Shown: piece after piece, positions 2,860-61,885 of the stretch | Position numbering within the stretch: the first letter of the stretch is position 1 | Layout: each line of letters opens with the position of its first letter | From: Carcharhinus amblyrhynchos | Lineage: Eukaryota | Reading direction: 5' to 3' | NCBI GenBank assembly: GCA_965287045.1 | Contig: OZ336893.1 | Coordinates: forward strand, 20,150,001 to 20,214,000 | Length of the DNA stretch: 64,000 nucleotides | Program-made: the position numbers and the translations under genes | Notes under the pieces: generated by a model | Databases searched by the model: none | What the model was told of the DNA's origin: nothing | What the model saw: only the letters and a program-made list of their open reading frames with translations

Positions 2860-3720
2860 TTCTTACACATTTCCGAGAACCGTTGCATACACTTTGGCCG
2901 AATACCCGACTGCTTTGTAACAATTGTGATCCTGGATTAACGTTATTTTGACGTAACAAACTGGCTGCATAGAGGTGACAGAATTTGCTGTTTCTGATAA
3001 ATACCTTTTTGTTGAGAAAACTGTAGAAAAGTCCAACAAAGTCAGATTATTAATTGGGAGGTTTGAAAGCCTAGTTTTCTGCTGCACCACGTTTTACATT
3101 GCATCCGTGCCTGGTATGCAAACTGCATAAGCAGCAGACAAACAGCCACTAAAGAGTCAACTTCTTCAGAAGTTGCAGCTTGACCACATGGGCTGAAACG
3201 TAGGAGGGGAAGGGGAAAGTGCACAAGGTCGAAACTTCGGCAGTACTCACAATGTTGGTGGACTGGCGGTGAAAATAGGATCACAGCAGATGCTACTCAG
3301 AGTACGTGTGTGAGAGAGAAAATGAGCGAGCAAAAAAAGGGCGTTTCTTTGTCTGTACAGCAGGGAGACACTGAAATCAGTTGATAGAAAATAATGCACT
3401 GGATACTGTTGTGTGCTCGACTCTTTAAGATCAGGTGGCAGTTTAACAATCAGAATTTTTAAAAGTAAGTGTTTAAAATTATCTTTCAACCTCCTATCTA
3501 AGTTCTGGGAACTTGACAAGCCTGCTACGGGATTCTTTTTAGCTGTGAAAACGTAACTGCATCTAATTAACTACAGAAGCTGACGTAGGCTATGGGATTA
3601 ATCACAGCCGCTTCACAATGCCCATGAGCAAACCAGCCCTGCTAACTTTCTTTAAACAGCACATGCTAAGGAAGAGCTGGCTTGGGAGAAACTGATTTTT
3701 GGAAGGCTGGACAGAACGCG
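2860..3720 (+). promoter_or_regulatory. Putative internal promoter/5' region for the KIAA0754-type first exon
   Basis: TE-free; CpG visibly retained relative to the introns; CRE/ATF-like TGACGTAA at 2949-2956 and TGACGTAG at 3581-3588. Confidence 0.35.
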
Positions 3721-4695
3721 GAAGCTCACAAAACCTTTTTTGTTGAAGAGTGAAAGTTTGTCTTGCAGTATGTGACAGCTGGATACAACGCTTTCAAGAA
3801 CTGGGAAGAAAATTAACTTTGGATGTATCTCATAGTCTGTTTGTTTCAGTTCATAAACCAAGAGGAAAAAGACAACTTTTTGCCAACTGATATGGGGGAA
3901 AACACCTGGACTAAAATAGGAATAGATAAATAGCCAAGCCTTGCTGAATTAGGAGCTGACAACTCTTGGCACCAGAGTGTTTCATACTGGAGTTATTTTT
4001 GCTCTCAGTGCTCTTCACTGGATAAACAGTGTAAACTAGACACTAACTAGAATTCAGTATCAAATGACAGAATGGTTTAATAACAGCAAACTGCAAATAA
4101 TTGTTATTTAGGTAATGACCTGATATCATTCCTTTAAAAATCATCTGGAAACCTTTGGTCATGTTGTTGTACTGAAGTTGTACAGTTTTAAAAAATGCCA
4201 TGATGTTGCTAAGAAAGGAAGCAGCTGAAGCTCCACTGATTGAAGAACTTCCTGTCTTTGAATCTGCCGGAATATCCGCTAAGAATCACTTTTCAAAAGA
4301 AAACATGCTAGTTTTCAAGGACTGCCCCTTCTGCAGCAGCCGGGTACTTGGGCATTGTAGATTGTGGTTAAAATGAAAGGAATTTACAGAGTTGGACTAC
4401 AACATACAAAAGGCTTTATTCTTATCAACCATGATGCATATGAACAGAAGACCAGACAGGATCTGAATTGAATGCACAAATGTAGTTTTCTGTAGAGATG
4501 CTTTTACTGATCGGATGTGCCTCATTTATATGTGACAAGTGAGTAATATGCTGTTGGAGCATCTGCATATTAGAGACTGCTGATTAAATTACAATTCACA
4601 AATACATTTCTCTGTTGGAATTGAAGTGCAAGTCACTCAGTGCTGAAAATTTGACCTTTTTTTTTCTTGTGGATTATTTAAATCACTTTTGAATT

Positions 4696-7600
4696 ATGGG
4701 GAAACCGCTTAGCAGGCCAGACTGTTTGCGACGCAATAATCCCACCTGTTTAGGAAAAAATGAAGAGGATGATATGTACATTGAAGATTGTTACATTCCA
4801 CAAAGATCCATATATGACACTATGAGAATTAATGAACAGATAGACTTAGGATCAAAGACTAACCAGCCATCAAGAAGTTTTGCTGATCATACACACTCAG
4901 TAAACCAGAGGGCTGTCGAGTCTAGCACTTTATCAAGTAATGGAACTCCTACCACGTCCAGTGTATTTGAAACCAGAACTAGTTCTGAAAGTAAAAAATT
5001 AGATGAAAGAGTTATATTTGATGCATTAAAACTGAGCAGTGATGTGATTCGGTCCTCTGGCCCACCAAAAAGGAGACCTCATGTGGAGAGGAAGGAGAAT
5101 ATTAACAGGAGGTCATGGAAAGCTTTCCTGCCACCAAACTTTCCAGAGTTCACAGAAAGAACTGAAATGCCAGCAAATGAGCCTGCAGGCAGTGCAGATT
5201 TAAATAAAGAGAAAAGACATTCAAGCCACTTCCCTGTTGAAATTCCTAATCTGTTTCCTGAAAAAGAATTGACCACGCATACGTCCGAAAATGAAAAAGA
5301 TTCCGCACTTCAGCAAGGAGTAGAAAATAACTTGAAAGATGCTGCACTATTATCTCAAAGTTCAGGAAGTGGATGTGCTCCATTACTGGAATACAAGGAT
5401 GCATCAATGATGATGAGACATTTACCAGAAAATCAGGCATGTGTATCTGCAACATGGCCAAGAGCCTTCCGAGCTAAAGGAACATTAGAAGATGCTTCAT
5501 TTATGCATAGAAGAGCTTATGAAATAGCTCAAGAAAGGAAAACTGCCTATGCAACATCAATAGAGTGTAGAGGTATTTTGGATTTGCGTGCAACCAAACT
5601 AGATACTGACATATATAACGTGCAGGAGGTTATGGCTGAATTTGAAGAACAGGATTATGGCATGGAATTAAAAGGCTGTGTTCATTCTGAAGTTGAGGAG
5701 CAATGTAAAGATGAAAAAATGTTGTTTGATTCAGAATTTCTGAATGAAGAATCAGTGTTTCATCAGCTAGATGCTATAATCCGGGAAAGTACACAGGGAG
5801 ATTCGGACTCGCTGTTGCAATTTGAAAAAGAGGAGCCGAGATTAATTGAAAATGCTGAAGGATTAGTTCTACAACAGCTAGATGCTGCAATCATTGAAGT
5901 CACAGAGGGAGATATGGACTCACTGTTGCAATTTGAACAAGAGGAGCAGCGATTAACTGAAAACAGTGAAGAATCAGTTCTTCAACAGCTGGATGCTGCA
6001 ATCATGGAAGTCAGAGAGGAAGATATGGACTCACTGTTGCAATTTGAACAAGAGCAGCGATTAACTGAAAACAGTGAAGAATCAGTTCTTCAACAGCTGG
6101 ATGCTGCAATCATGGAAGTCAGAGAGGAAGATTTGGGCTCACTATTGCATTTTGAACAAGAGGAGCAGAAATTAACTAAAAATGAGGAATCAGTTCTTCA
6201 ACAGCTGGATGCTGCAATCATGAAAGTCAGAGAGGAAGATATGGACTCACTGTTGCAATTTGAACAAGAGGAGCAGAAATTAATTGAAAATGAGGAATCA
6301 GTTCTTCAACAGCTGGATGCTGCAATCATGAAAGTCAGAGAGGAAGATATGGACTCACTGTTGCAATTTGAACAAGAGGAGCAGAAATTAATTGAAAATG
6401 AGGAATCAGTTCTTCAACAGCTGGATGCTGCAATCATAGAAGTCACAGAGGAAGATGCAGACACTCTCTCAAGATTTGGAGAAGAGCAAATGCTGATTAA
6501 TGACAAAGAATTTGGTCAAAAATCAGCATTTCAACAACTAGATGCTGTAATGGAAACCAGAGAGGGTGATATGGACTCTCTGCTACAATTTGAAGAAGAG
6601 AGAAAACTATTTGAAGACCGAGATGTTTTTAATGAACAGTCAGCACTTCAGTTAGATGCTGAAATTTTTACAAGTACAGAGGCAGATACAGAATTCCTGT
6701 TACAATTTGAAGAAGTAGAGCAAAGCTTGTTTGAAGGCCGAGAAGCTTTTAATAAGCAGCCAACCCTTCAGTTGGATTCAGAAATCTTGGAAAACATGGA
6801 GGGTGATACAGACTCCCTACAACAATTTGAAGAAGAAGAACAACGATGTTTGATTGAAGACAGCGAAGTCCTTGATGAAGAATCAGTACTCCAACAGTTA
6901 GAAATTGTAATCTTGGAAAGCACAGAAGGTGATGCAAATTCTTTGAGATTTGAAGCAAAAGAGAACCAATTGTTGGTTGACAAAATAATGAAATATGATG
7001 TGTCAGTAGAAGCAGAAGAAAACTTTATGGCTATCCCAAAATCAAATTCTGCAGTTGGAGAATGTTCTGAAGGATTAGGTTGTAAATCACAAAGCAATAA
7101 AAAAGCGATTGAGGGAATAACTGCAACTGAGCAAAAATCAACTTGCACAGATTGGAAAAATAATATTCATCAGAAAGAGGAGTCTGAGTGCACCCTCAAA
7201 TCCAAAGTACAGCAGTCAGATGCATATTTTAGCACAGCTGGATCAGAGGAGGGTGACATCTATCAGAAAGATATTACAGCGATGTCTGGGGAGGACTATA
7301 ATATAACATTCTGTCATGATCTTTTGAATCGACCAAAATTTCCTTCCAAAGAGGTGCAAGTGAATTCAGAGGAAAACTCTAATTGTGATAAAGAAGTTGT
7401 GTTTGAAGTAAGAACTACAGGTACTGAACCTGAAACTTTAATCAAGGAATGTGGAATCCGTAATGCTGGCATAAAAAAAGATGGACAAAAGTCTGTTCGG
7501 TTAGAAGAACATGAAACAACTGTTCAATGCCCTAAAGATCCATCCATACCATTAAGAATGCATTTTGATTGCTGTCCTCAGGAACTAATAAATTTGTCCA

Positions 7601-8730
7601 GTGTGCAGAACACCAAGGAATTGTGGGAAAACTCTATGCAATTAAATAAACATGATATAATTGAATATCCTTCAACAGACTCCACTGTAACATCACATCT
7701 TGATCCCTCATACTGTGCTTTGGACATGGCGATGTTGCCCAATGACGGGCAGACCAAGGATACGGAGGCCACTTACGTACAAATAGAAGAATGTGAAATG
7801 GCTGTTGAGACCCGAACTACAAATTCTCTTTCGGAATCGAGTGACTATCAGTCAAATTATAGTCAGGAAGTATCAGTAATTTCTTGTGTGCCTGATGTAG
7901 GCTGTGATGTGGAGAAATTCCCTGGTGGCTGTGAAGAGGAGGAGCAGGGCCTTAATTTAGAGAAAGAAGGGAAGAAATGTATTGGATTTGAAGTACAGGA
8001 AATTGACATTCAAATAGAGTCATCAGACTTGAAAATGAAACCTGAAGCGATTGAGATTCCGCTTCACACTGAGGGTTGCACTGATGTTCAGTTTAATGAG
8101 CAGAAAGATTTGATAGATATGGATGAAGTAAAATGGTCAGAAAGTTTAGATGCTGTTGCTTCAGACACAGTGTGCATACATGGCTCAGAACAGCAATTTG
8201 AAAGTGATCCCCACAAAATAGATTTTGAGTCTGATATGTTTGTTCAAAACAGTAAAGGTTCCGGTGGAGTATTGTTGTTTGACATGGATATTGAGCAGCC
8301 ACTTGAGGCAATTAAGTTTCTTTTCCAATCTGATGAAGAAATGGACGTAAGTGAAGCAACTGTGACAACACAAGCAACTGCAGCTGAAAGTAGGAAAACA
8401 AACCTGAAAGCAGATGTGTGGGAAAATGTTTCTGGTTCATGCCTTGAGGATGACTTTATTGAAGAAGGAACGCTAGAATATTTATTTGAGGTAGAATCAC
8501 CGGAAGATTCCAATGACACTAACCCAAGGGTGTTGACCTTGGAGCCAGGTTCACTCAATATAATTTTAGACACTGAAGCAGAGGAATCCACTGTGGAGCC
8601 AAATGAAGTTGATTTTTCTGTTTTAACTGAAGAACTGGATGCAGATATTGAGGTATTTATGTTTAAAATCACTAATTTTCCTGACCAAATTAATGAAGAG
8701 TGTGACATGAAAGCATATGAAACAATTTAA
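4696..8730 (+). CDS. KIAA0754: KIAA0754-like giant exon/ORF nested in a MACF1 intron (1344 aa unspliced; 1319 aa if spliced at 8652 as an alternative first exon of MACF1)
   Basis: Uninterrupted 4035-nt ORF with strong Kozak context (A at -3, G at +4) and an in-frame TGA at 4690-4692. N-terminus MGKPLSRPDCLR...YIEDCYIPQRSIYDTMRINEQID...KLDERVIFDALKL resembles vertebrate KIAA0754 (recalled). The remainder is acidic and low-complexity. Confidence 0.85.
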   Translation: MGKPLSRPDCLRRNNPTCLGKNEEDDMYIEDCYIPQRSIYDTMRINEQIDLGSKTNQPSRSFADHTHSVNQRAVESSTLSSNGTPTTSSVFETRTSSESKKLDERVIFDALKLSSDVIRSSGPPKRRPHVERKENINRRSWKAFLPPNFPEFTERTEMPANEPAGSADLNKEKRHSSHFPVEIPNLFPEKELTTHTSENEKDSALQQGVENNLKDAALLSQSSGSGCAPLLEYKDASMMMRHLPENQACVSATWPRAFRAKGTLEDASFMHRRAYEIAQERKTAYATSIECRGILDLRATKLDTDIYNVQEVMAEFEEQDYGMELKGCVHSEVEEQCKDEKMLFDSEFLNEESVFHQLDAIIRESTQGDSDSLLQFEKEEPRLIENAEGLVLQQLDAAIIEVTEGDMDSLLQFEQEEQRLTENSEESVLQQLDAAIMEVREEDMDSLLQFEQEQRLTENSEESVLQQLDAAIMEVREEDLGSLLHFEQEEQKLTKNEESVLQQLDAAIMKVREEDMDSLLQFEQEEQKLIENEESVLQQLDAAIMKVREEDMDSLLQFEQEEQKLIENEESVLQQLDAAIIEVTEEDADTLSRFGEEQMLINDKEFGQKSAFQQLDAVMETREGDMDSLLQFEEERKLFEDRDVFNEQSALQLDAEIFTSTEADTEFLLQFEEVEQSLFEGREAFNKQPTLQLDSEILENMEGDTDSLQQFEEEEQRCLIEDSEVLDEESVLQQLEIVILESTEGDANSLRFEAKENQLLVDKIMKYDVSVEAEENFMAIPKSNSAVGECSEGLGCKSQSNKKAIEGITATEQKSTCTDWKNNIHQKEESECTLKSKVQQSDAYFSTAGSEEGDIYQKDITAMSGEDYNITFCHDLLNRPKFPSKEVQVNSEENSNCDKEVVFEVRTTGTEPETLIKECGIRNAGIKKDGQKSVRLEEHETTVQCPKDPSIPLRMHFDCCPQELINLSSVQNTKELWENSMQLNKHDIIEYPSTDSTVTSHLDPSYCALDMAMLPNDGQTKDTEATYVQIEECEMAVETRTTNSLSESSDYQSNYSQEVSVISCVPDVGCDVEKFPGGCEEEEQGLNLEKEGKKCIGFEVQEIDIQIESSDLKMKPEAIEIPLHTEGCTDVQFNEQKDLIDMDEVKWSESLDAVASDTVCIHGSEQQFESDPHKIDFESDMFVQNSKGSGGVLLFDMDIEQPLEAIKFLFQSDEEMDVSEATVTTQATAAESRKTNLKADVWENVSGSCLEDDFIEEGTLEYLFEVESPEDSNDTNPRVLTLEPGSLNIILDTEAEESTVEPNEVDFSVLTEELDADIEVFMFKITNFPDQINEECDMKAYETI
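5746..6975 (+). repeat. Coding tandem repeat, ~11 units of 108-123 bp (EESVLQQLDAAIMEVREEDMDSLLQFEQEEQKLIEN)
   Basis: Units 6184-6291 and 6292-6399 are identical 108-mers; flanking units diverge progressively. Confidence 0.95.
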
Positions 8731-8736
8731 TTGTAC

Positions 8737-8834
8737 AATAAATTTAAAATGATCTTTTTTGATGCATATACAAATGCATCCAGCAGTCTCTAACAGAGAT
8801 TCAACTAAACCGTGATAAGTCATCAGTGAATAAA
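8737..8834 (+). terminator. Two AATAAA polyadenylation signals right after the KIAA0754-like stop codon
   Basis: AATAAA at 8737-8742 and 8829-8834; stop codon ends at 8730. Confidence 0.45.
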
Positions 8835-10134
8835 ACTTGAGTCATATCCTGACCTCCCCCCACCAAAGTCAGTTAAATGCAGTGTTTGCGAAATGCTGTT
8901 ATTATAATGTGATTGAAACAAAAGCTTTCTTCAAGTCGTCAGGCTCCAACAGCTGTAATGTTCTCACTGTGGCCTGGTGCTCATTTAACTTGCCCAGATC
9001 AAAAATTTGACTATCGACGCAAAACATTGTATACAAAATTTTAGACATATAACAATTAAAATATGCATAAAAATTCAGTATTGACTAACACTGATTTATT
9101 TCTCATTGCTGGAGAGCTAAAATGAACATGTTTGTTGAATTCGCAACTGGATAACCTACAAGTTCAAGTATCAGATTCCCAGGCAAATTGCTTCAGTTAG
9201 AACCTGTAAATCAGCTGACTTTCAAACTTTGCCACCTTTATTGAATAAGTCTGGTTGATTCTAAGGATGTTAAATAGATATGAGTATAACTGGCTGTTAG
9301 AGTAGCATTGTTGGCAACAGTTCAAAAATCTGGCCAAAACCATTTCACTATCATGATAGAGCAGAAGTTTTAAAATTCCAACAAAAAAAATATAAAAATG
9401 GTGACTGTAAAAATGATATCTTGGTTAATACTCAAATTCATATTTTGGCTAAATTGTAAAAAGAGGAACTTTGGTAATATCAGATTTACTATAAGCAATG
9501 CGTGCGCACCAAAAGCGTCAACCGAGGAAACATCAAAGTGTGCATGTATTACACATGGTCATAAATATGCAGAACCATAGATATTGTTGTGGTCTGTTAC
9601 TTGACATAAAATGTTGCTTACATGCAAATTTAAAACCAGCCTCACCGAGTATCATTGATGAAATAATGCTTGGACGCAAAATGCTTGCACGCGAGTTACC
9701 TTCCTGAGAACAGCATATACTGGATAACTTCACCATAGCTATGTAACACCTGAATGAGCAAGTTTGTTCATTTGGGGATATGATACCTTTTTCTATGTTA
9801 GGATTACCTTCCTTATCACACAATGCATATTCCCTGAGAGTGTAGGAAATGGGTCATTCTCCATTGTGTATCAATATTGTCATTTACGTGGACTATAAAA
9901 TGTTTGGCAGGGTTGAGTAGAAAAAGCAGTGTGGCAGACGATTCTTCTTAACGCCATTAATGGCCCAGCTGAATATCTGGAACCCCTATCTAGGAAACTG
10001 ACTTTTATGTTTTTTCTTGAGTCTGCATCATTGTTCCTTCATTGGATGTTAAGATTTTTCTATTTTTTGTTCACGTATGTATTTAAATATGTTCAGGATT
10101 TTTGTGTTGTACATGAATAGGACACTCTCAATTT

Positions 10135-10410
10135 GGGGCAACACAATGGTTAGCAATGCTGCCTCACAGCGCCAGGGACCCAGGTTAGATTCTGGCCTTG
10201 ATTGTGTGGAGTTTGGACATTCTCCCTGTATCTGTGTGAGATTCCTCCTAGTGTTCCAGTTTCTTCCCACAGTACAAAGATGTGCTGGCCTTGGTAAATG
10301 TACAGATTTACAGCAGATATGCTTGGCCTAGGAGGAATGCTGTTTCAGAGAATCGGCGCAGACTCAATGAGCCGAATGGTTTCCTTCTGCACTGGAGGGA
10401 TTTTTTGGTT
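10135..10410 (+). mobile_element. HE1-like V-SINE (tRNA head, V domain, CR1-derived tail)
   Basis: TGGTTAGCAATGCTGCCTCACAGCGCCAGGGACCC...TGTGTGGAGTTTG...GCCGAATGG. Confidence 0.85.
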
Positions 10411-11409
10411 CTTGTTTCTTTTATTCACTTAAATCATGGGCAGTGCTGGCTGGCCAGCATTTATTGCCACCCTTAGTTGCCTGAGGGTAGTTGAGTGCAG
10501 TGAAAAGTAAGGGGTGATTATTCTAATCTTTCTAGAAATTGCATTGTTAGGGCCAATTGCTAGAAAGGTTGTATAATTATATAGTTGCATTGAACTTCGT
10601 TACTCAAATATTCAAACTATGTGACAATTCATAACAAGTTTGGAAAGTTTTGATATTTTTACATTTTTGTGCAGTAATTATTCCACAACTTTTCAGTTAT
10701 GTATTGTTCTGCTATGTGTTTATACAAATGGGATTATGCTTAGCAACAGATACAGATGGAAGTTAGTGATATCATTGTTTGATTTTATGAAAATGGTTAC
10801 CCAGCTGAGCATAGAAACCACTGAAAATTATATCTCATGTTTACTAACCTTATTGCTTTAAAAACATAGCTACAGTACTAGTTTTTTTTTGTCTGCAACC
10901 CATTGAGTTCCAAATTAGTCAGGAAACCCTTACCTTGATCAGCTCCCAAAACCTCTTGCTGACTGCTAGTGGAATCTATAGTTTTTAAATCTAAGAATAC
11001 AGCCGCATGTTCCTTGTAATAGACAAAGCATAGCAGAAGCCAGATCCTCCTTCACTGACCTTGGTTAAAAGGATGTCATTTGAAACTGCAGCCAACTCAA
11101 TTTGTTTTGAATAATCTGAGCTAATTTAATACAGTCACATGACCCACATCTCTGAATTATCTTCTGTAATAGTTTAGCCTGATGCTATTGAAACCGGAAT
11201 CTGGTTATCTGATTTAATTGCTTGAACTTCAATATATGCATGCAGGCAGACGATCATTTGAGCAGAGTTTGAGGGCCAAAGAAATCTTGTTTTCCTATAT
11301 AAAAAAATTACTACTTTTATTAATTTGCCAGATTCAGGCATTCATACTAAAATTGACATCTATTCCTCGTTTCCATGAAAAGTTGGTAATAGGCCACCTT
11401 GAGCTATGA

Positions 11410-11634
11410 TGTGAAGATGCCGGTGTTGGACTGGGTTGGGGGCAGTAAGAAGTCTCTCAATACCAGGTTAAAAGTTCAACAGGTTTATTTGGAATCACAA
11501 GGTTTTAGAGTGCTGCTCCTTCATCAAATGAATGAAGAGCCTCTCCACTCACCTGATGAAGGAGCAGAGCTCCAAAAGCTTGTGATTCCAAATAAACCTC
11601 CTTGACTTTAATCTGGTGTTGTGAGACTACTTAC
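11410..11634. mobile_element. Palindromic Penelope-derived element with a degenerate hammerhead core
   Basis: ~82-bp inverted arms 11445-11526 and 11554-11634; CTGATGA-A-GGAGC-AGA-GCTCC-AAAAGC at 11553-11579. Confidence 0.7.
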
Positions 11635-13009
11635 ATTTCGTGAACTACTGCAGACTGAGTGAAGGTCAATCAAGAAGTTCCCAATGGCTCATGCTTTTTA
11701 ATGTTTGAGAGGAAAATCAATTCTTAATAGTTACACATTTAAGTCTTCAATATATTTTCTTTCTCCTCACCATCTTTCCAGTTTCTATAGCTTTTCCTTT
11801 GCTAATACGTTAGATCATTTAAAATGGTGTCGTCTGTGAAATTATTCCTTGCCCTTCATTCTTCAAAAGCTAATTCTGCTTAACTCAATTATCACCCATT
11901 GCCATAGAATTACTACTTGGTTGAGTTTTTTTCCTATCATCAGCTGCATTGTGTATATTAGACTGTCTGCGCTGCATGGGAAGCATATGCTTGAAATCAG
12001 ATCTCCTGGCATGAGAAAATTGCACTTATTAACTGTGATTTTACTTTTGCCTGTTGTAGATAAGTAAGGGCATTGTTAGCAAAGCCCTTGGGCATCAGTT
12101 CCTCTCTTTTTTACATTCAAAATATTCTACATTTACTATTGTGAAAGCTGCTGGAACATTTTCCAGCATTGGTCATTTATTTGATCAAGTACAGTTTTGC
12201 ACAAATGTTCTTGGTCAGGATTCTTTCCTGGATATCTAAAAACAATGGCATATAAATATGTCAAGGACTGTAGCACAAAATTGGCAACAGCATATTAGCA
12301 AATCGTTTTGCGTTCTGTCCAAATTGGTTTTTCAGTTGACTATTGAAGATGGGTTGGCAGTCCATTGCTGCAATTTTACTCCACTGTCCAAGATGAATTT
12401 TGAAAGTAATTTGTTGATAACTTGTCCACTGCTGCCCATTTCCTCAGTATAGGGTGGGGAAATCAATTAAAATGACTGGCTTCAGAGTTTTCTGGGAGTT
12501 GGCTTACCGCATCAAACAGCTAAAATTAAATATTGTTTCTTGGCACAAATATTTGAAGTCATTAACAAGTTTTTCTAAACTTTGGACAATGGTGAAAAGT
12601 AAAATAAAAGAAAAATGTTTTGATTTTTAAAGCTGATGATGTTCATTCTTGGGTACTTTGTTTCTCTTGTGCTTTGCAAATCAGTGTGTGGCTCCAGATA
12701 ACACATACTACACAACAATCAGGGAAGATTCACAATCACTGTATATTCAGTCAAATAGACTATCCAATTAATGTTTACAAATTGTTTATCTTAGCAGTGG
12801 GAATACCTAAAATTTGAACAGTTCATAATTTTTCAACTTGTATTATGCACCATTTTGCCTCTGGGCCTAGAATTGTACAATACATTGTCAAACAATCTGT
12901 CCCATGGGGTAGTCATTTTTTTACACATTTCCTCTGTTCCATGGTACCTGAAGTGTGAACAACCTGATGAGTGTTTGATTTGATTTTGAATTATCACATG
13001 TATTAGTAT

Positions 13010-13285
13010 GCAATGAAAAATATTGTTTCGTGCACACTTTACAGATGAAGCATACCGTTCCTAGAGAGGGAAAGGAGAGAGTGCAGAATGTAGTGTTACA
13101 TTCATAGCCAGGGTGTAGAGAAAGATCAGCCTATTGCGAGATAGGTCCATTCCAAAGTTTGATGGCAGCAGGGAAGGAGCTGTTCTTGAGTCGGTTGTAC
13201 GTGACCTCAGACTTTTGTATCTTTTTCCCAATGGAAGAAGATGGAAGTGTGTGTGTTTGGGGTGTGTGGTGTCCTTAATTTTTAA
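13010..13285 (-). mobile_element. Rex1/Babar LINE 3' fragment
   Basis: Antisense peptide IKDTTHPKHTHFHLLPLGKRYKSLRSRTT, continuing after a frameshift as KNSSFPAAIKLWN; typical of the Rex1 RT C-terminus. Confidence 0.75.
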
Positions 13286-14306
13286 ACTACTAGTTTTTTT
13301 TTCCATTAAAAACAAGCACACTTGGCTCAAAACCCACTACATCAGTGAGAGCCCACTTGAAACAATTACGTATGTATTTCTACTTCCCCTTCCCAGGTCC
13401 ATGTAAATAAATTCTGTGCTTGGAAAATGTTTGTACCCAACTTGAGGGAATTGGGCCAAATCAAGAAATTAACCCAACTTTTTAACTCTTGCAGCTTTTA
13501 GGGGAACAAATGGCTTAATTTTCCCTACTAAATGAGTAGTAGAATTTATCTGTGCTGCAAAAAAAGCAAAGATTCTACTAGGAGAGTTGAAATTAGTTCA
13601 GTTAGACTCTTGAGCATTAAACAGAGAATTACTTTTAGCAGTGTCTATAAATAACTTCCTAAGACAATCTTCATAATTTTACCAAATATGACTATTTAGA
13701 TTTTCATTCTTAAAAAATGAAACATAAAATATAAGTTGGCTAAGCTCCTTTGATTCTCTGACTACTGAACCTGTAATGTGTAAAGAATAGCATAACTCAA
13801 AGTTGAAGAAAATGCTAGAAAGTATTTGATTGTTAGACATCATAGGGTTAAGGAAGATTGTTCGTTATTAGGATTCAGTAGTGTTCTTTTAATTGTTTCC
13901 ATCCATTGATTGTGAGTTTACTGAGTTTTTTTTTTGTGGGAGTGTGATCTGAGGACTTGAGAGGTGGTTTTGTTTTTGTATAAACTATGATTCAATCTTT
14001 GGCTTGCTTTGATCTTTGATAACAATTCTGGTAAAATACAGACCTTTCAAAACAAACATTACCCAGTTTTGTACCTTCATGCACTTTTTATATTTTGTGC
14101 CTTAAACCTTAGCTTTTGTCGGTACTGCGTTCCAGATGTGTTTTTGCATATTTAATAAGTGATTTTAATTTTTTATTGACTCAATGCAGATACACATCAC
14201 AATCCTCCCATTTCTGTGCAAAATTGTATTATTTCATAATATTTCAAGGTGAGCTATTATGACAGTATTGTAGACTGATTTGTTTCTCATTATTCTTCTG
14301 TTTTAG

Positions 14307-14468
14307 ATATTCCAGAAAGTTCAGGTGGACCCCATCCAGTACAAACTTCAGCAGGCTAATGGGGTGGGACAGGGTCTTATTCAGAGTGCTGCGAAGAATG
14401 CCAACACCCAAGGACTTGAACATGATCTGGATGAGATGAACACCAGATGGAACACACTCAATAAAAAG
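14307..14468 (+). CDS. MACF1: MACF1 spectrin-rod exon ([11 protein letters not shown]...RWNTLNKK), phase 0-0
   Basis: ttttag|ATA ... AAG|gtcagt; 162 nt; matches MACF1 FQKEQVDPLQ...RWNTLNKK. Confidence 0.93.
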
Positions 14469-15007: not shown

Positions 15008-15178
15008 GTGGCAGAACGTATATCCCAGTTACAAGAAGCACTGTTGCACCGTGGAAAGTTCCAGGATGCTTTGGAACCTTTGTTGAGCTGGCTTACAGAT
15101 ACTGAAGAACTGATTGCCAATCAGAAACCTCCATCAGCAGAATACAAAGTGGTGAAGGCACAAATTCAAGAACAGAAG
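15008..15178 (+). CDS. MACF1: MACF1 exon ([13 protein letters not shown]...AQIQEQK), phase 0-0
   Basis: cccag|GTG ... AAG|gtattt; 171 nt. Confidence 0.95.
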
Positions 15179-28774: not shown

Positions 28775-29856
28775 GTAAGAACTAGGCGCAGGAGTAGGCC
28801 ATCTGGCCCCTCGCGCCTGCTCTGCCATTCAAAATGATCATAGCTGATCTTTCTGTGGACTCAGCTTCACTTACCCGCCTGCTCACCATAACCCTTAATT
28901 CCTTTACTGTTCAAAAATTTATCTATCCTTGCCTTAAAAACATGCAGTGAGATAAGAACATAAGAACATAAGAAATAGGAGCAGAAGTAGGCCATCTGGC
29001 CCTTCGAGCCTGCCCCGCCATTCAATAAGATCATGGCTGATCTGTCGTGGCTCAGTTCCACTTTCCCGCCCTCTCCCCATAACCCTTAATCCCTTCTCTT
29101 ATCAAAAACCCATCAACCCGCTTCTTAAAAATATTTAGCGAGGCAGCCTCCACCACTTCAACGGGCAGAGAATTCCAGAGATTCACCACCCTTTGAGTGA
29201 AGAAGTTCCTCCTCAACTCCGTTCTGAACCGCCCCCCCTTTATCTTGAGGCTGTGCCCCCATAACCTCAGCTGCTTCACTGGGCAGGGAATTCCACAGAT
29301 TCACAACCTTTTATGTGAAGAAGTTCCTCCTCAACTCAGTCCTAAATCTGCTTCCCCTTAGTTTGAGGCTATGCCCCCTAGTCCTAGTTTCACCCGTTAG
29401 TGGGAACAACTTCCCTGTTTCTATCTTATCTGTTCTATTCATAATCTTACATGTTTCTATAAGATCTCCCCTCATTCGTCTGAATTCCAATGAGTTTAGC
29501 CCCAGTCTACTCAGTCTCTCCTCATAAGCCAACCCTCTCAACTCTGGAATCAACCTCGCAAATTTCCTCTGCACTGCCTCCAGTGCTAGTGTATCCTTTC
29601 TCGAGTAAGGAGACCAAAACACTACATAGTACTCTAGGTATGCCCTCACCAACGCCTTGTACAGCTGCAACATAACCTCGCTGTTTTTAAACTCCATCCC
29701 TCTAGCAGTGAAGGACAAAATTCCATTTGCCGCCTTAATTACCTGCCGTACCTGCGACCAACTCCTTGTAATTTTTGCAGAAGGACACCTAGGCCCCTCT
29801 GCACAGCAGCATGCTGCAATTTTTTTACCATTTAAATAATAGTCTATTTTGCTGTT
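28775..29856 (-). mobile_element. CR1 LINE inserted into the Gypsy element
   Basis: Antisense ORF 29311-29718 is the CR1 RT C-terminus; TSD AGGAAC at 28769-28774 and 29857-29862. Confidence 0.9.
28956..29260 (-). mobile_element. Second CR1 3' fragment nested inside the first CR1
   Basis: (ATAAGAAC)n tail; TSD ATAA at 28952-28955 and 29261-29264; the host CR1 resumes after it. Confidence 0.85.
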
Positions 29857-31248
29857 AGGAACAAGCAGAGGTATGTGGTTCTGAAAAATTAATGGAGTTA
29901 CAGCAAGATCAGACGATAAAGGATTTGTATCATAAAGCCTACTCGGAAAAGGAATCAGAGTGTATCCCAGAATGCTATTATCTTAAGGATAAAGTCTTAA
30001 GGATCTGGAGACCTTGGCAGTTAGCACAGATGAAAAATGGGCACAAGTTCACCAGATTGTATTCTACCAGCAACACAGACTGGAAGTATTGCGAGTGGCA
30101 CACACATAACCTATAGGACCTCATCTAGGAGTGAGGAAAACTCAGGCTAAGACACGGAAGTATTTTTATTCAGCTGGATTACATAACAATGTGGTTGAAT
30201 TTTGTCATATCTGTCATACATGTTAGATGGTAGAAAAGCCACAAGCAGTGATAAACCAGCATCTTTGTTGTCAGTTCCCACGTTTGAAGAACCTTTTTAC
30301 ACGGGTTATAATTGATTGCATAGGTCCCCTCCCTAAAACCAAAAGTGGGAACCAGTATTTGATAACCGTGATGGATGTGTCTATCAGATTTACAGAGGCA
30401 ACTCCATTACAGAATGTCAAGATAAAAAAGGTTATGGAGGAGTTGCTCGCTTTCTTTACCCATTATGGATTACCCAGGGAGATTCAGTCAGACCAAGGGT
30501 CCAATTTTACTGCTAAATTTTTTAAGGAGGTCATGGATAGTTTAAGCATCAGACACTTTACATAGAGTGTGTACCATCTTGAATCCCAGACAGCACTGGA
30601 AAGTTGGCAACAGACCCTAAATACCATGTTGAGGGCTTATTGCCAGGATAATTTTTTTTAATCCTTGTTATTTGTATCCTTCATATAACACAAAATATGT
30701 TGAAATCATACTATAATCTGACTAGGTCATTGTCATAGCGTTAGCAATTATTTTTGTGTTTCCACCAACATTTCTGAGCAAGTGTGGTTTAATGGAGAAG
30801 TAAAGCAAAATATCACCGTTAACATTCATTGATGTTTATTTAAACACTATTTATGGAACTTGATGTGTATTTACCATTCGTGGTTTTTAAATGTATTGTA
30901 CCAGCAGACTTCTTTTGAAACATTCAATTAATTTAAAAAAAAGGTACATTTCAGAATTTTGGATTCACTAAGTTAGATGAATGGATGTTTGAACAAGTTT
31001 GAATGGATGGTTTGCAAATTAGTCCCACAAGTGAAGCAAAATCCTTTCACAGGTATTTACAGTCGTAATTTTACAGTTCTTCAAACTGGAGATTTTCGTC
31101 CTTTTTTGAATGGAATGCCCAATCAAGTTCCAATAAAAAACGAAGACTTTTGTAGTTCTTGACGTGTTCTTGTTTAAATGTTAAGATATTCCTATTTTAT
31201 TGTGCATATCTATTCAATATTTCCTCCACTGATATTTCATTTCCTCAG

Positions 31249-60856: not shown

Positions 60857-61885
60857 ATAGAACCATAGAAAAGTTACAACACAGGACATTCAGCCCATTG
60901 GGTCGGAGCCAGCCAAAAAAGGGGGAAAAACTAGGTGTGTTTCATATTAATTCCACTTTCTAACACCCGGTCCATTGCCTTGCAGATTTCAGCACTTTAG
61001 CTGCAGATCAAAATATTTTTTAAACGCTTCAGCCACAAACACCATTTGGGTCGTGAATTTCAGGCACTCACTGCCCTCATGTTCCTTCTATCAATCACCT
61101 TAAGTCTGTGTCCCTAGTAACTGACCCCTCAGCTCAGGGGAAATGGGTCTTTTTTTATCTACCCCATCTTGGGTCTTCACAATTTTATACACTTCAATTA
61201 GGTAACCCTTCAGTCTCCTCTATTCTAACAAAAACAATCCAGTCTATCCAATCTCTTGTCATAGTTGCAATTTTCAAGCCATGGCAACATTCTTGTAAAC
61301 CCCCTCTGTAATTTCTCCAGAGCAATTGTGTCCTTGTAATGTGGTGACTGGAACTATACACAAAATTCCAACTGTGCCTTAACCAGTGTGTTATACAGTT
61401 TCAGCATTATGCCCTTTTGTATTCAGTACCATGCCCAGTTAAGGAAAACATTCTTGTATGATTTGTCCTGCCACTTTAAGGACCTTTAGATATGTACTGT
61501 CACTTCCTCAATCCCACTCAACACCTTCCCATTTATTGAGTATCCCCTAGCTTTGCTTGTGGTTCCCAAAAGCATTCCCTCACAATTTTCCAGATTAAAT
61601 TCTATTTGCCACTTTTCCAGCCACGCAAGCAAACCAGTGATATAATTCTGGAGACAACAGCTATCCTCTTCACTATCAACCACACCACCAATTTTTCTGC
61701 CATCTACAAACTTTCCAATCGTGCTTCCCACATTTGAGTCCAAATTATTAATGTATATAAGCAGCAAGGCCTGCAACATTGAGCCTTGTGAAATGCCAGT
61801 GGAGACCACTTTTCATTTGCAAAAACACCCATTGACCATTACCCTTTGTTTCCTGACACAGAGCCAATTTTGGATCCAATTCTGC
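60857..61885 (-). mobile_element. CR1 LINE, 5' truncated with internal deletions
   Basis: ORF 61486-61809 GISQGSML...IYINNLD...KFVDGRKIGG...WQIEFN; ATAGAACCATAGAA tail. Confidence 0.9.

Follow-up and report, generated by a model that had tools for sequence, protein, structure and literature searches.

In the case of dystrophin, short isoforms (Dp427 to Dp71) arise from internal promoters, their first exons being spliced into the spectrin-repeat rod while the actin-binding domain is dropped. The unique N-termini of these isoforms comprise a few residues, in contrast to the 400-1400 residues of the nested heads considered here. Alternative first exons exchanging the N-terminal anchor are likewise used by the isoforms dystonin-a3, MACF1c and MACF1-4, which start either 5' of the plakin domain or in the plectin-repeat exon, and of which MACF1c and MACF1-4 lack the actin-binding domain. 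For dystonin-a3 (BPAG1a3), a conserved myristoylation motif at the N-terminus has been described (PMC3352950). According to a 2021 review, the plakin domain is kept by all known MACF1 isoforms (PMC8012552), and the available sections of reviews from 2016 and 2021 count six such isoforms. An additional exon common to MACF1 and dystonin was noted in the Fig. 1 legend of a 2017 review (Voelzmann et al., 10.1101/122010). Databases (UniProt/RefSeq) moreover hold entries named 'uncharacterized protein KIAA0754 homolog' and 'MACF1, isoforms 6/7', which are found among the matches to a large nested exon of the shark Carcharhinus amblyrhynchos, located in the window analysed here, i.e., a stretch of 64,000 nucleotides (nt) from assembly GCA_965287045.1 (contig OZ336893.1, positions 20,150,001 to 20,214,000, forward strand). 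Judged from its homologues, the window exon is the orthologue of KIAA0754 and thus of MACF1 isoforms 6/7; the extra exon of the 2017 review we take to be KIAA0754, too. Unlike the first exons named above, the nested exon starts neither 5' of the plakin domain nor in the plectin-repeat exon. Its isoform, which is not among the six counted in those review sections, shares the lack of an actin-binding domain with MACF1c and MACF1-4 and is devoid of the plakin domain as well, against the 2021 statement (PMC8012552).

Our preferred reading, which we hold to be probable, is that this KIAA0754-type exon of 5.4 kb is spliced at position 8652 to the distal rod, and that its product is a plakin-less membrane-to-microtubule linker with a putatively acylated head. 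Transcript data for the locus were contigs of four runs (X1-X4), guessed to be RNA, from four related organisms and four studies; such contigs show presence only, while starts, ends and absence are beyond their reach. The elements concerned are the following.

3247..4695, + strand: long unspliced 5' leader with 29 upstream ATGs (contig pieces: X3 3247-3614 and 3591-6000, X1 from 3266, X2 3586-4677)
4696..8652, + strand: nested first exon, coding part of 1319 codons, alternative N-terminus orthologous to KIAA0754 (open reading frame, contigs, homologues)
8653..8658, + strand: 5' splice site GTATTT, phase 0, used in vivo (sequence; contig joint GT..AG)
14307..14468, + strand: acceptor exon in the distal spectrin rod, common to both forms and preceded in the transcript by the nested exon or by the 498-codon rod exon upstream (phase 0; contigs, homologues)

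The first-pass annotation of this DNA had predicted a phase-0 donor at 8652, GAG|GTATTT, sharing its hexamer with the exons ending at 15178 and 23060 and joining the phase-0 exon at 14307 to give ...DADIE|IFQKVQ. All of this is borne out by the sequence, and the junction 8652>14307 (GT..AG, 5654 nt skipped), proposed there as a check, is indeed present in contigs of three of the four runs (X1, X2 and X3, with 52, 30 and 30 nt on the shorter side), the junction-bearing X1 contig carrying 6.2 kb of further sequence. By motif, the donor is weak, ranking fifth among the 180 GT sites of the open reading frame (ORF) region in a simple consensus score, and an identical GAG|GTATTT of equal score occurs at 5573. 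Its use is shown by the contigs crossing the joint and not by the motif. In the same three runs, the bins 8965-9826 are empty, and the depth of bin 8534-8964 is explained by pieces ending at the donor (7.00, 1.86 and 6.49 computed versus 7.01, 1.86 and 6.49 observed). In X4, the nested exon is covered only in pieces; another contig of this run has 2914 other letters before acceptor 14307 and reaches 6 nt into a near-match of the end of the upstream 498-codon exon. These extra letters are likely the canonical upstream exons, and from phase and the X4 contig we infer a canonical upstream junction to 14307 between sites 34 kb apart.

At the 5' side, the annotation had pointed to a strong Kozak ATG preceded by an in-frame stop, and both are there, with A at -3, G at +4 and a TGA at 4690-4692. 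Its conclusion that the stop excludes an internal exon needs more than the stop, as an acceptor could also lie inside the ORF; it gains from the finding that no strong splice acceptor occurs in 3800-5200 and that X3 contigs are unspliced between about 3590 and the ATG at 4696 and beyond it. With the two overlapping X3 contigs, cover is unbroken from 3247 to 6000, giving a leader of about 1.45 kb. Bin 2500-2930 is free of contig cover, although contig ends cannot define a start site. A strong donor-like AAA|GTAAGT near 3465 is crossed unspliced by X2 and X3 contigs. It could be argued that the junction is noise and the stretch something else, such as a cassette exon inside the gene, an intron retained in the transcript or a nested gene without relation to MACF1. 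In favour of this are the unmapped start site and, in X2, a contig with 29 letters before 3424 that find no match. Given, however, that the same junction recurs in three organisms and both paralogues, that an in-frame stop stands just before the ATG with no strong acceptor upstream, and that the initiator context of the protein is invariant across vertebrates, we regard this as highly improbable.

Concerning the host gene, the KIAA0754-type ORF sits on the same strand in the MACF1 intron preceding the FQKxQVD exon, the latter comprising 162 nt (14307-14468, phase 0). Two further features complete this part of the gene.

8653..14306, + strand: intron of 5654 nt, the 3' part of a 34,230-nt host intron starting 19.9 kb before the window (contigs, exon mapping)
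15008..15178, + strand: following rod exon, joined to 14468 in all four runs

The preceding rod exon of 498 codons (window -21417 to -19924) has a phase-0 end, and its join would read ...ADFK|IFQK. Further upstream, the plakin SH3 exon lies 132 kb before the nested ATG, the CH exons themselves not being located. Downstream, spectrin-repeat rod, EF-hand and GAR exons are present (Pfam, exon mapping), and fused homologues can be followed through the successive exons, beginning at 14307 and reaching those for EF-hand, GAR and C-terminus about 105 kb from the window start, in line with the annotation, which had placed EF-hand and GAR beyond the window. The nested exon thus has the plakin SH3 exon on its 5' side and the exons for rod, EF-hand and GAR on its 3' side. 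Continuity from head to GAR in the shark is pieced together from exon mapping and not from one transcript. Within the intron, high-copy repeats resembling short or long interspersed elements (SINE/LINE-like) show very high contig depth at 10142-10470, 11440-11610 and 12990-13250. Elsewhere in the window, ORFs at 29311-30565 and 61486-61812 resemble, by eye, fragments of reverse transcriptase and integrase genes.

Fusion of the head to the rod is also common among homologues. Of 157 candidates with 2353-5000 amino acids (aa), 60 match the head, and all 60 carry spectrin repeats and continue into the homologue of exon 14307. Human KAI2516368.1 is such a fused form, with the join at residue 1404/1405. 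Pfam gives no family in the head of either paralogue and neither a CH nor a plakin family in three fused homologues. The identification with KIAA0754, likewise suggested before, is correct: identity is about 69% over residues 1-157, intron and acceptor exon are the same, and trees of the head as well as of head plus rod place the window protein in the MACF1 clade (100/100) beside the catshark Scyliorhinus torazame.

The main mechanistic clue, absent from the annotation, is an invariant acylation-type N-terminus.

4696..5160, + strand: conserved head, residues 1-155, with a Met-Gly-Lys-Pro-Leu-Ser start, Cys10 and Cys18, and blocks 29-54, 102-116 and 138-146

Conservation is limited to this part of the head. 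Across 168 sequences, identity is at least 95% at residues 1-12, 18, most of 29-54, 102-116 and 138-146, and in 43 chosen diverse sequences G2, K3, P4, L5, S6, P8, C10 and C18 are invariant. The same first ten residues occur in 166 of 180 matches, in 5 behind an extension, while 9 models are without them. With its Met-Gly start, Ser6 and the nearby Cys10 and Cys18, the N-terminus fits the pattern of N-myristoylated and S-palmitoylated proteins. Cysteines close to a myristate are commonly palmitoylated, e.g., in YES1. For N-myristoylation, the pattern Met-Gly-x-x-x-Ser has been reported, with the Ser highlighted, and in the supplement Gly-Lys-x-x-Ser N-termini of ARF6, GLIPR2 and the hippocalcin family are listed as myristoylated (PMC10696250). 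A related case was provided by Thinon 2014, in which a caspase-cut MACF1 fragment is myristoylated post-translationally from Gly5087, the site being predicted from peptide mapping (PMC4200515). As is predicted for the nested isoform, this fragment would be a myristoylated distal rod with EF-hand and GAR; in contrast to that isoform, it is a product of apoptotic proteolysis and lacks the head (PMC4200515). The human Gly5087 site lies about 190 residues before the join of the nested exon, and its Asp-Gly pair is kept in the shark 498-codon exon. We also considered whether the MACF1 entry of that myristoylome is the nested isoform itself, and rejected this, since one of its ten listed peptides fits, by eye, the exon upstream of the join and the cells were apoptotic, which points to the caspase fragment. 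The entry is a precedent for myristoylated distal MACF1 in cells.

Alternatively, the spliced isoform may be real and its head a protein-binding module without lipid anchor, localised by its conserved helices and an Arg-Arg-Ser-Trp motif. Blocks 29-54, 102-116 and 138-146 are conserved as strongly as the N-terminus, and an AlphaFold model of residues 1-160, which has no fold (mean predicted local distance difference test score 57, predicted template modelling score 0.19), is confident only in two short predicted helices, 39-50 and 104-114; in addition, there is no match in the supplements of two myristoylome papers. Yet Gly2, Ser6 and the nearby cysteines are invariant from hagfish to human and in both paralogues, so we judge this alternative doubtful, although the two roles are not mutually exclusive. 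A search of the ESM Atlas with the head gave no usable match, and the SxIP motif is absent from both the MACF1 and the dystonin head.

Beyond the conserved part, the head turns into an acidic spacer. As stated in the annotation, the head as a whole is acidic (22.6% Asp plus Glu, isoelectric point 4.2), and past the conserved part the Asp plus Glu content amounts to 15-24% in every lineage, with spacer lengths ranging from 265 to 1244 residues. Outside sharks, the spacer is unalignable except for one short block, found in 132 of 138 MACF1-type heads versus none of 26 of the dystonin type. Compared with bony-vertebrate KIAA0754, the shark head lacks significant similarity past residue 160 other than a short Thr-Trp-Pro-Arg block. 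The shark head further differs from its bony-vertebrate counterparts by a lower proline content (3% versus 5-12%) and a shark-specific acidic repeat.

5745..6836, + strand: acidic coding tandem repeats, shark-specific, units of 36-40 aa (108-nt unit x6.5, then 120-nt unit x2.4)

At protein level, about ten degenerate copies are found, with fewer in catshark, which lacks about 170 residues of the repeat, so that copy number varies between sharks. An origin of the repeat by amplification of the bony-vertebrate Glu-Leu-x-Phe-Glu-Glu block is not supported, as a profile of 132 segments scored the best copy at 0.1 bits, shuffles reaching up to 4.1. Because 19 of 30 listed ORF differences of X1 (a partial list) change the residue, the spacer appears to be under weak constraint. 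In run X3, a contig has gaps of one letter each at 7329, 7339 and 7731, besides 4 further gap letters.

The annotation had further proposed a switch between splicing and polyadenylation, giving either a fused or a free protein, based on the sequence following the donor.

8653..8730, + strand: read-through of 25 codons plus TAA; a free protein of 1344 aa results only where the donor goes unused (sequence; without contig cover)
8737..8834, + strand: AATAAA pair (8737, 8829), putative signals (sequence)

The full ORF (4696-8730, + strand) encodes 1344 aa. Its extension by 25 codons was counted correctly, and the first AATAAA follows the stop after 7 nt; the second, said to follow at once, comes 99 nt past it. 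Of the proposed isoform pair, the headless spliced MACF1 stands, with contigs of three of four runs and 60 of 60 homologues, while the switch is not shown in sharks: no contig in any of the four runs covers 8653-8964, where contigs show presence and not absence. A free form is nevertheless curated in mouse, i.e., isoform 7 (NP_001161390.1), and rat KIAA0754 is a RefSeq NP_ entry as well. Contrary to what the annotation assumed, both forms had thus been annotated before. That a regulated switch also yields a functional free protein would agree with these entries, with the weak motif of the donor and with the AATAAA pair, as two or more AATAAA occur in 41 of 5516 downstream 110-nt windows (0.7%; at least one in 9.6%). 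Among the best 120 of 233 near-length matches, moreover, 112 are unfused and 8 fused, and in teleosts a second copy carries a gene name of its own, si:ch73-305o9.3. Unfused database entries can, however, be genomic ORF calls, and the length of the read-through is what chance would give, 25 or more codons being reached from 24% of random downstream positions. Among relatives, the tail varies from 4 to 62 residues (79 tails), with 8 in another shark-like sequence, and the dystonin paralogue reads 6 codons with its first AATAAA 725 nt away. Together with the missing contig cover, this makes the switch unlikely in our view, and the free protein of 1344 aa probably arises by read-through in minor amounts. 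The teleost second copy (si:ch73-305o9.3 in salmonids) is diverged, with extra cysteines, a His-rich stretch and no rod in its database entries, and may be a stand-alone remnant of a duplicate macf1 locus.

Returning to the spliced isoform, the head has exactly two matches in this genome, the MACF1 locus and the dystonin locus, the layout being the same at both.

C7:10429587-10428313, - strand: paralogous nested first exon of dystonin, flanked by the counterparts of the large rod exon and of the acceptor exon

Database models contain a short dystonin isoform with a head of about 430 aa, and in this genome the two heads share 59% identity over the first 150 residues; intron, phase and acceptor exon are equivalent to those of MACF1. 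The dystonin head is shorter (425 versus 1319 codons), has no repeat and ends in a phase-0 donor. At this donor, an X4 contig ends with 24 loose letters, of which 22 fit the next dystonin exon 15.7 kb away, while the next-best place fits 17. Its leader of at least 940 nt is unspliced and covered by X4 contigs, and non-coding similarity between the two leaders was not found. In addition, Logan contigs of 8.6-10 kb encode complete dystonin-type fusions of 2636-2730 aa, which must be spliced.

Regarding age, the annotation had dated the exon to the gnathostome ancestor, which is too young. In head trees, the MACF1 and dystonin clades split with 100/100, and a gene model of the hagfish Eptatretus burgeri, with a 607-aa head fused to the same rod exon, falls outside both gnathostome clades (its branch is long, and the rooting is by midpoint only). 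Because the paralogues occupy equivalent introns and the hagfish head lies outside both clades, the exon must be older than the MACF1/dystonin duplication and likely goes back to the vertebrate ancestor, before cyclostomes branched off. A profile search of 1.84 billion representatives returned 51 matches, 10 found before and 41 new; of 20 new ones looked up, 16 clusters were named, all 16 of them vertebrate and none from invertebrates.

Several points weigh against the acylated linker. The runs are RNA by guess, available as contigs only and taken from related organisms rather than from this shark; two of the three junctions have a short side of 30 nt, 1 nt below the 31-nt threshold, and the shark dystonin junction rests on one contig. 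Gene models make up most of the fusions, that of the hagfish included. Both the start site and the promoter are putative, the shark head protein is predicted from nucleotide sequence, and the 29 upstream ATGs of the leader would hinder translation. Regarding acylation, KIAA0754 (O94854) is not in the supplements of two myristoylome papers, and a Pro in third place is seen in none of the Gly-Lys peptides of one supplement (PMC10696250). No paper linking KIAA0754 to myristoylation was found in the open-access literature searched, nor, by title or abstract start, any functional study of it, the matches to O94854 being proteomic listings.

The rod and the EF-hand/GAR tail of spectraplakins bind microtubules. 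On our preferred reading, the nested exon is likely transcribed from its own internal promoter, and in the predicted product of about 3,500 residues the actin-binding and plakin domains are replaced by a putatively myristoylated and palmitoylated head. The first 10-20 residues would anchor the protein in a membrane through a myristate on Gly2 and palmitate on Cys10/Cys18, residues 29-146 would provide short binding motifs folding on a partner, and the remaining head would be a fast-evolving acidic spacer of free length, while rod and tail would sit on microtubules. Such an isoform would tether microtubules to a membrane independently of actin, and the head-to-tail autoinhibition reported for Shot would not apply to it.

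The shark copy does not amount to a new system, given that databases already hold the arrangement and a review has commented on it. New are the cartilaginous-fish junctions in both paralogues, the hagfish model with an age at the vertebrate root, and the acylation hypothesis, a specific mechanism suggested by the conserved N-terminus. In its widest form, the proposal reads that a second class of spectraplakin is made from both MACF1 and dystonin throughout the vertebrates, hagfish and human included, started from an internal promoter, lacking actin-binding and plakin domains and tying microtubules to the membrane by a doubly acylated N-terminus; this may be so, though we would place it just short of an even chance. 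If true, knockouts and mutations of the 5' exons would spare the nested-exon isoform, whereas mutations in the GAR domain would affect it. Should the preferred reading be right, MACF1 and dystonin genetics, with its isoform-specific knockouts, variants still filed under 'KIAA0754' and rod antibodies, would have to allow for a plakin-less, membrane-bound isoform.

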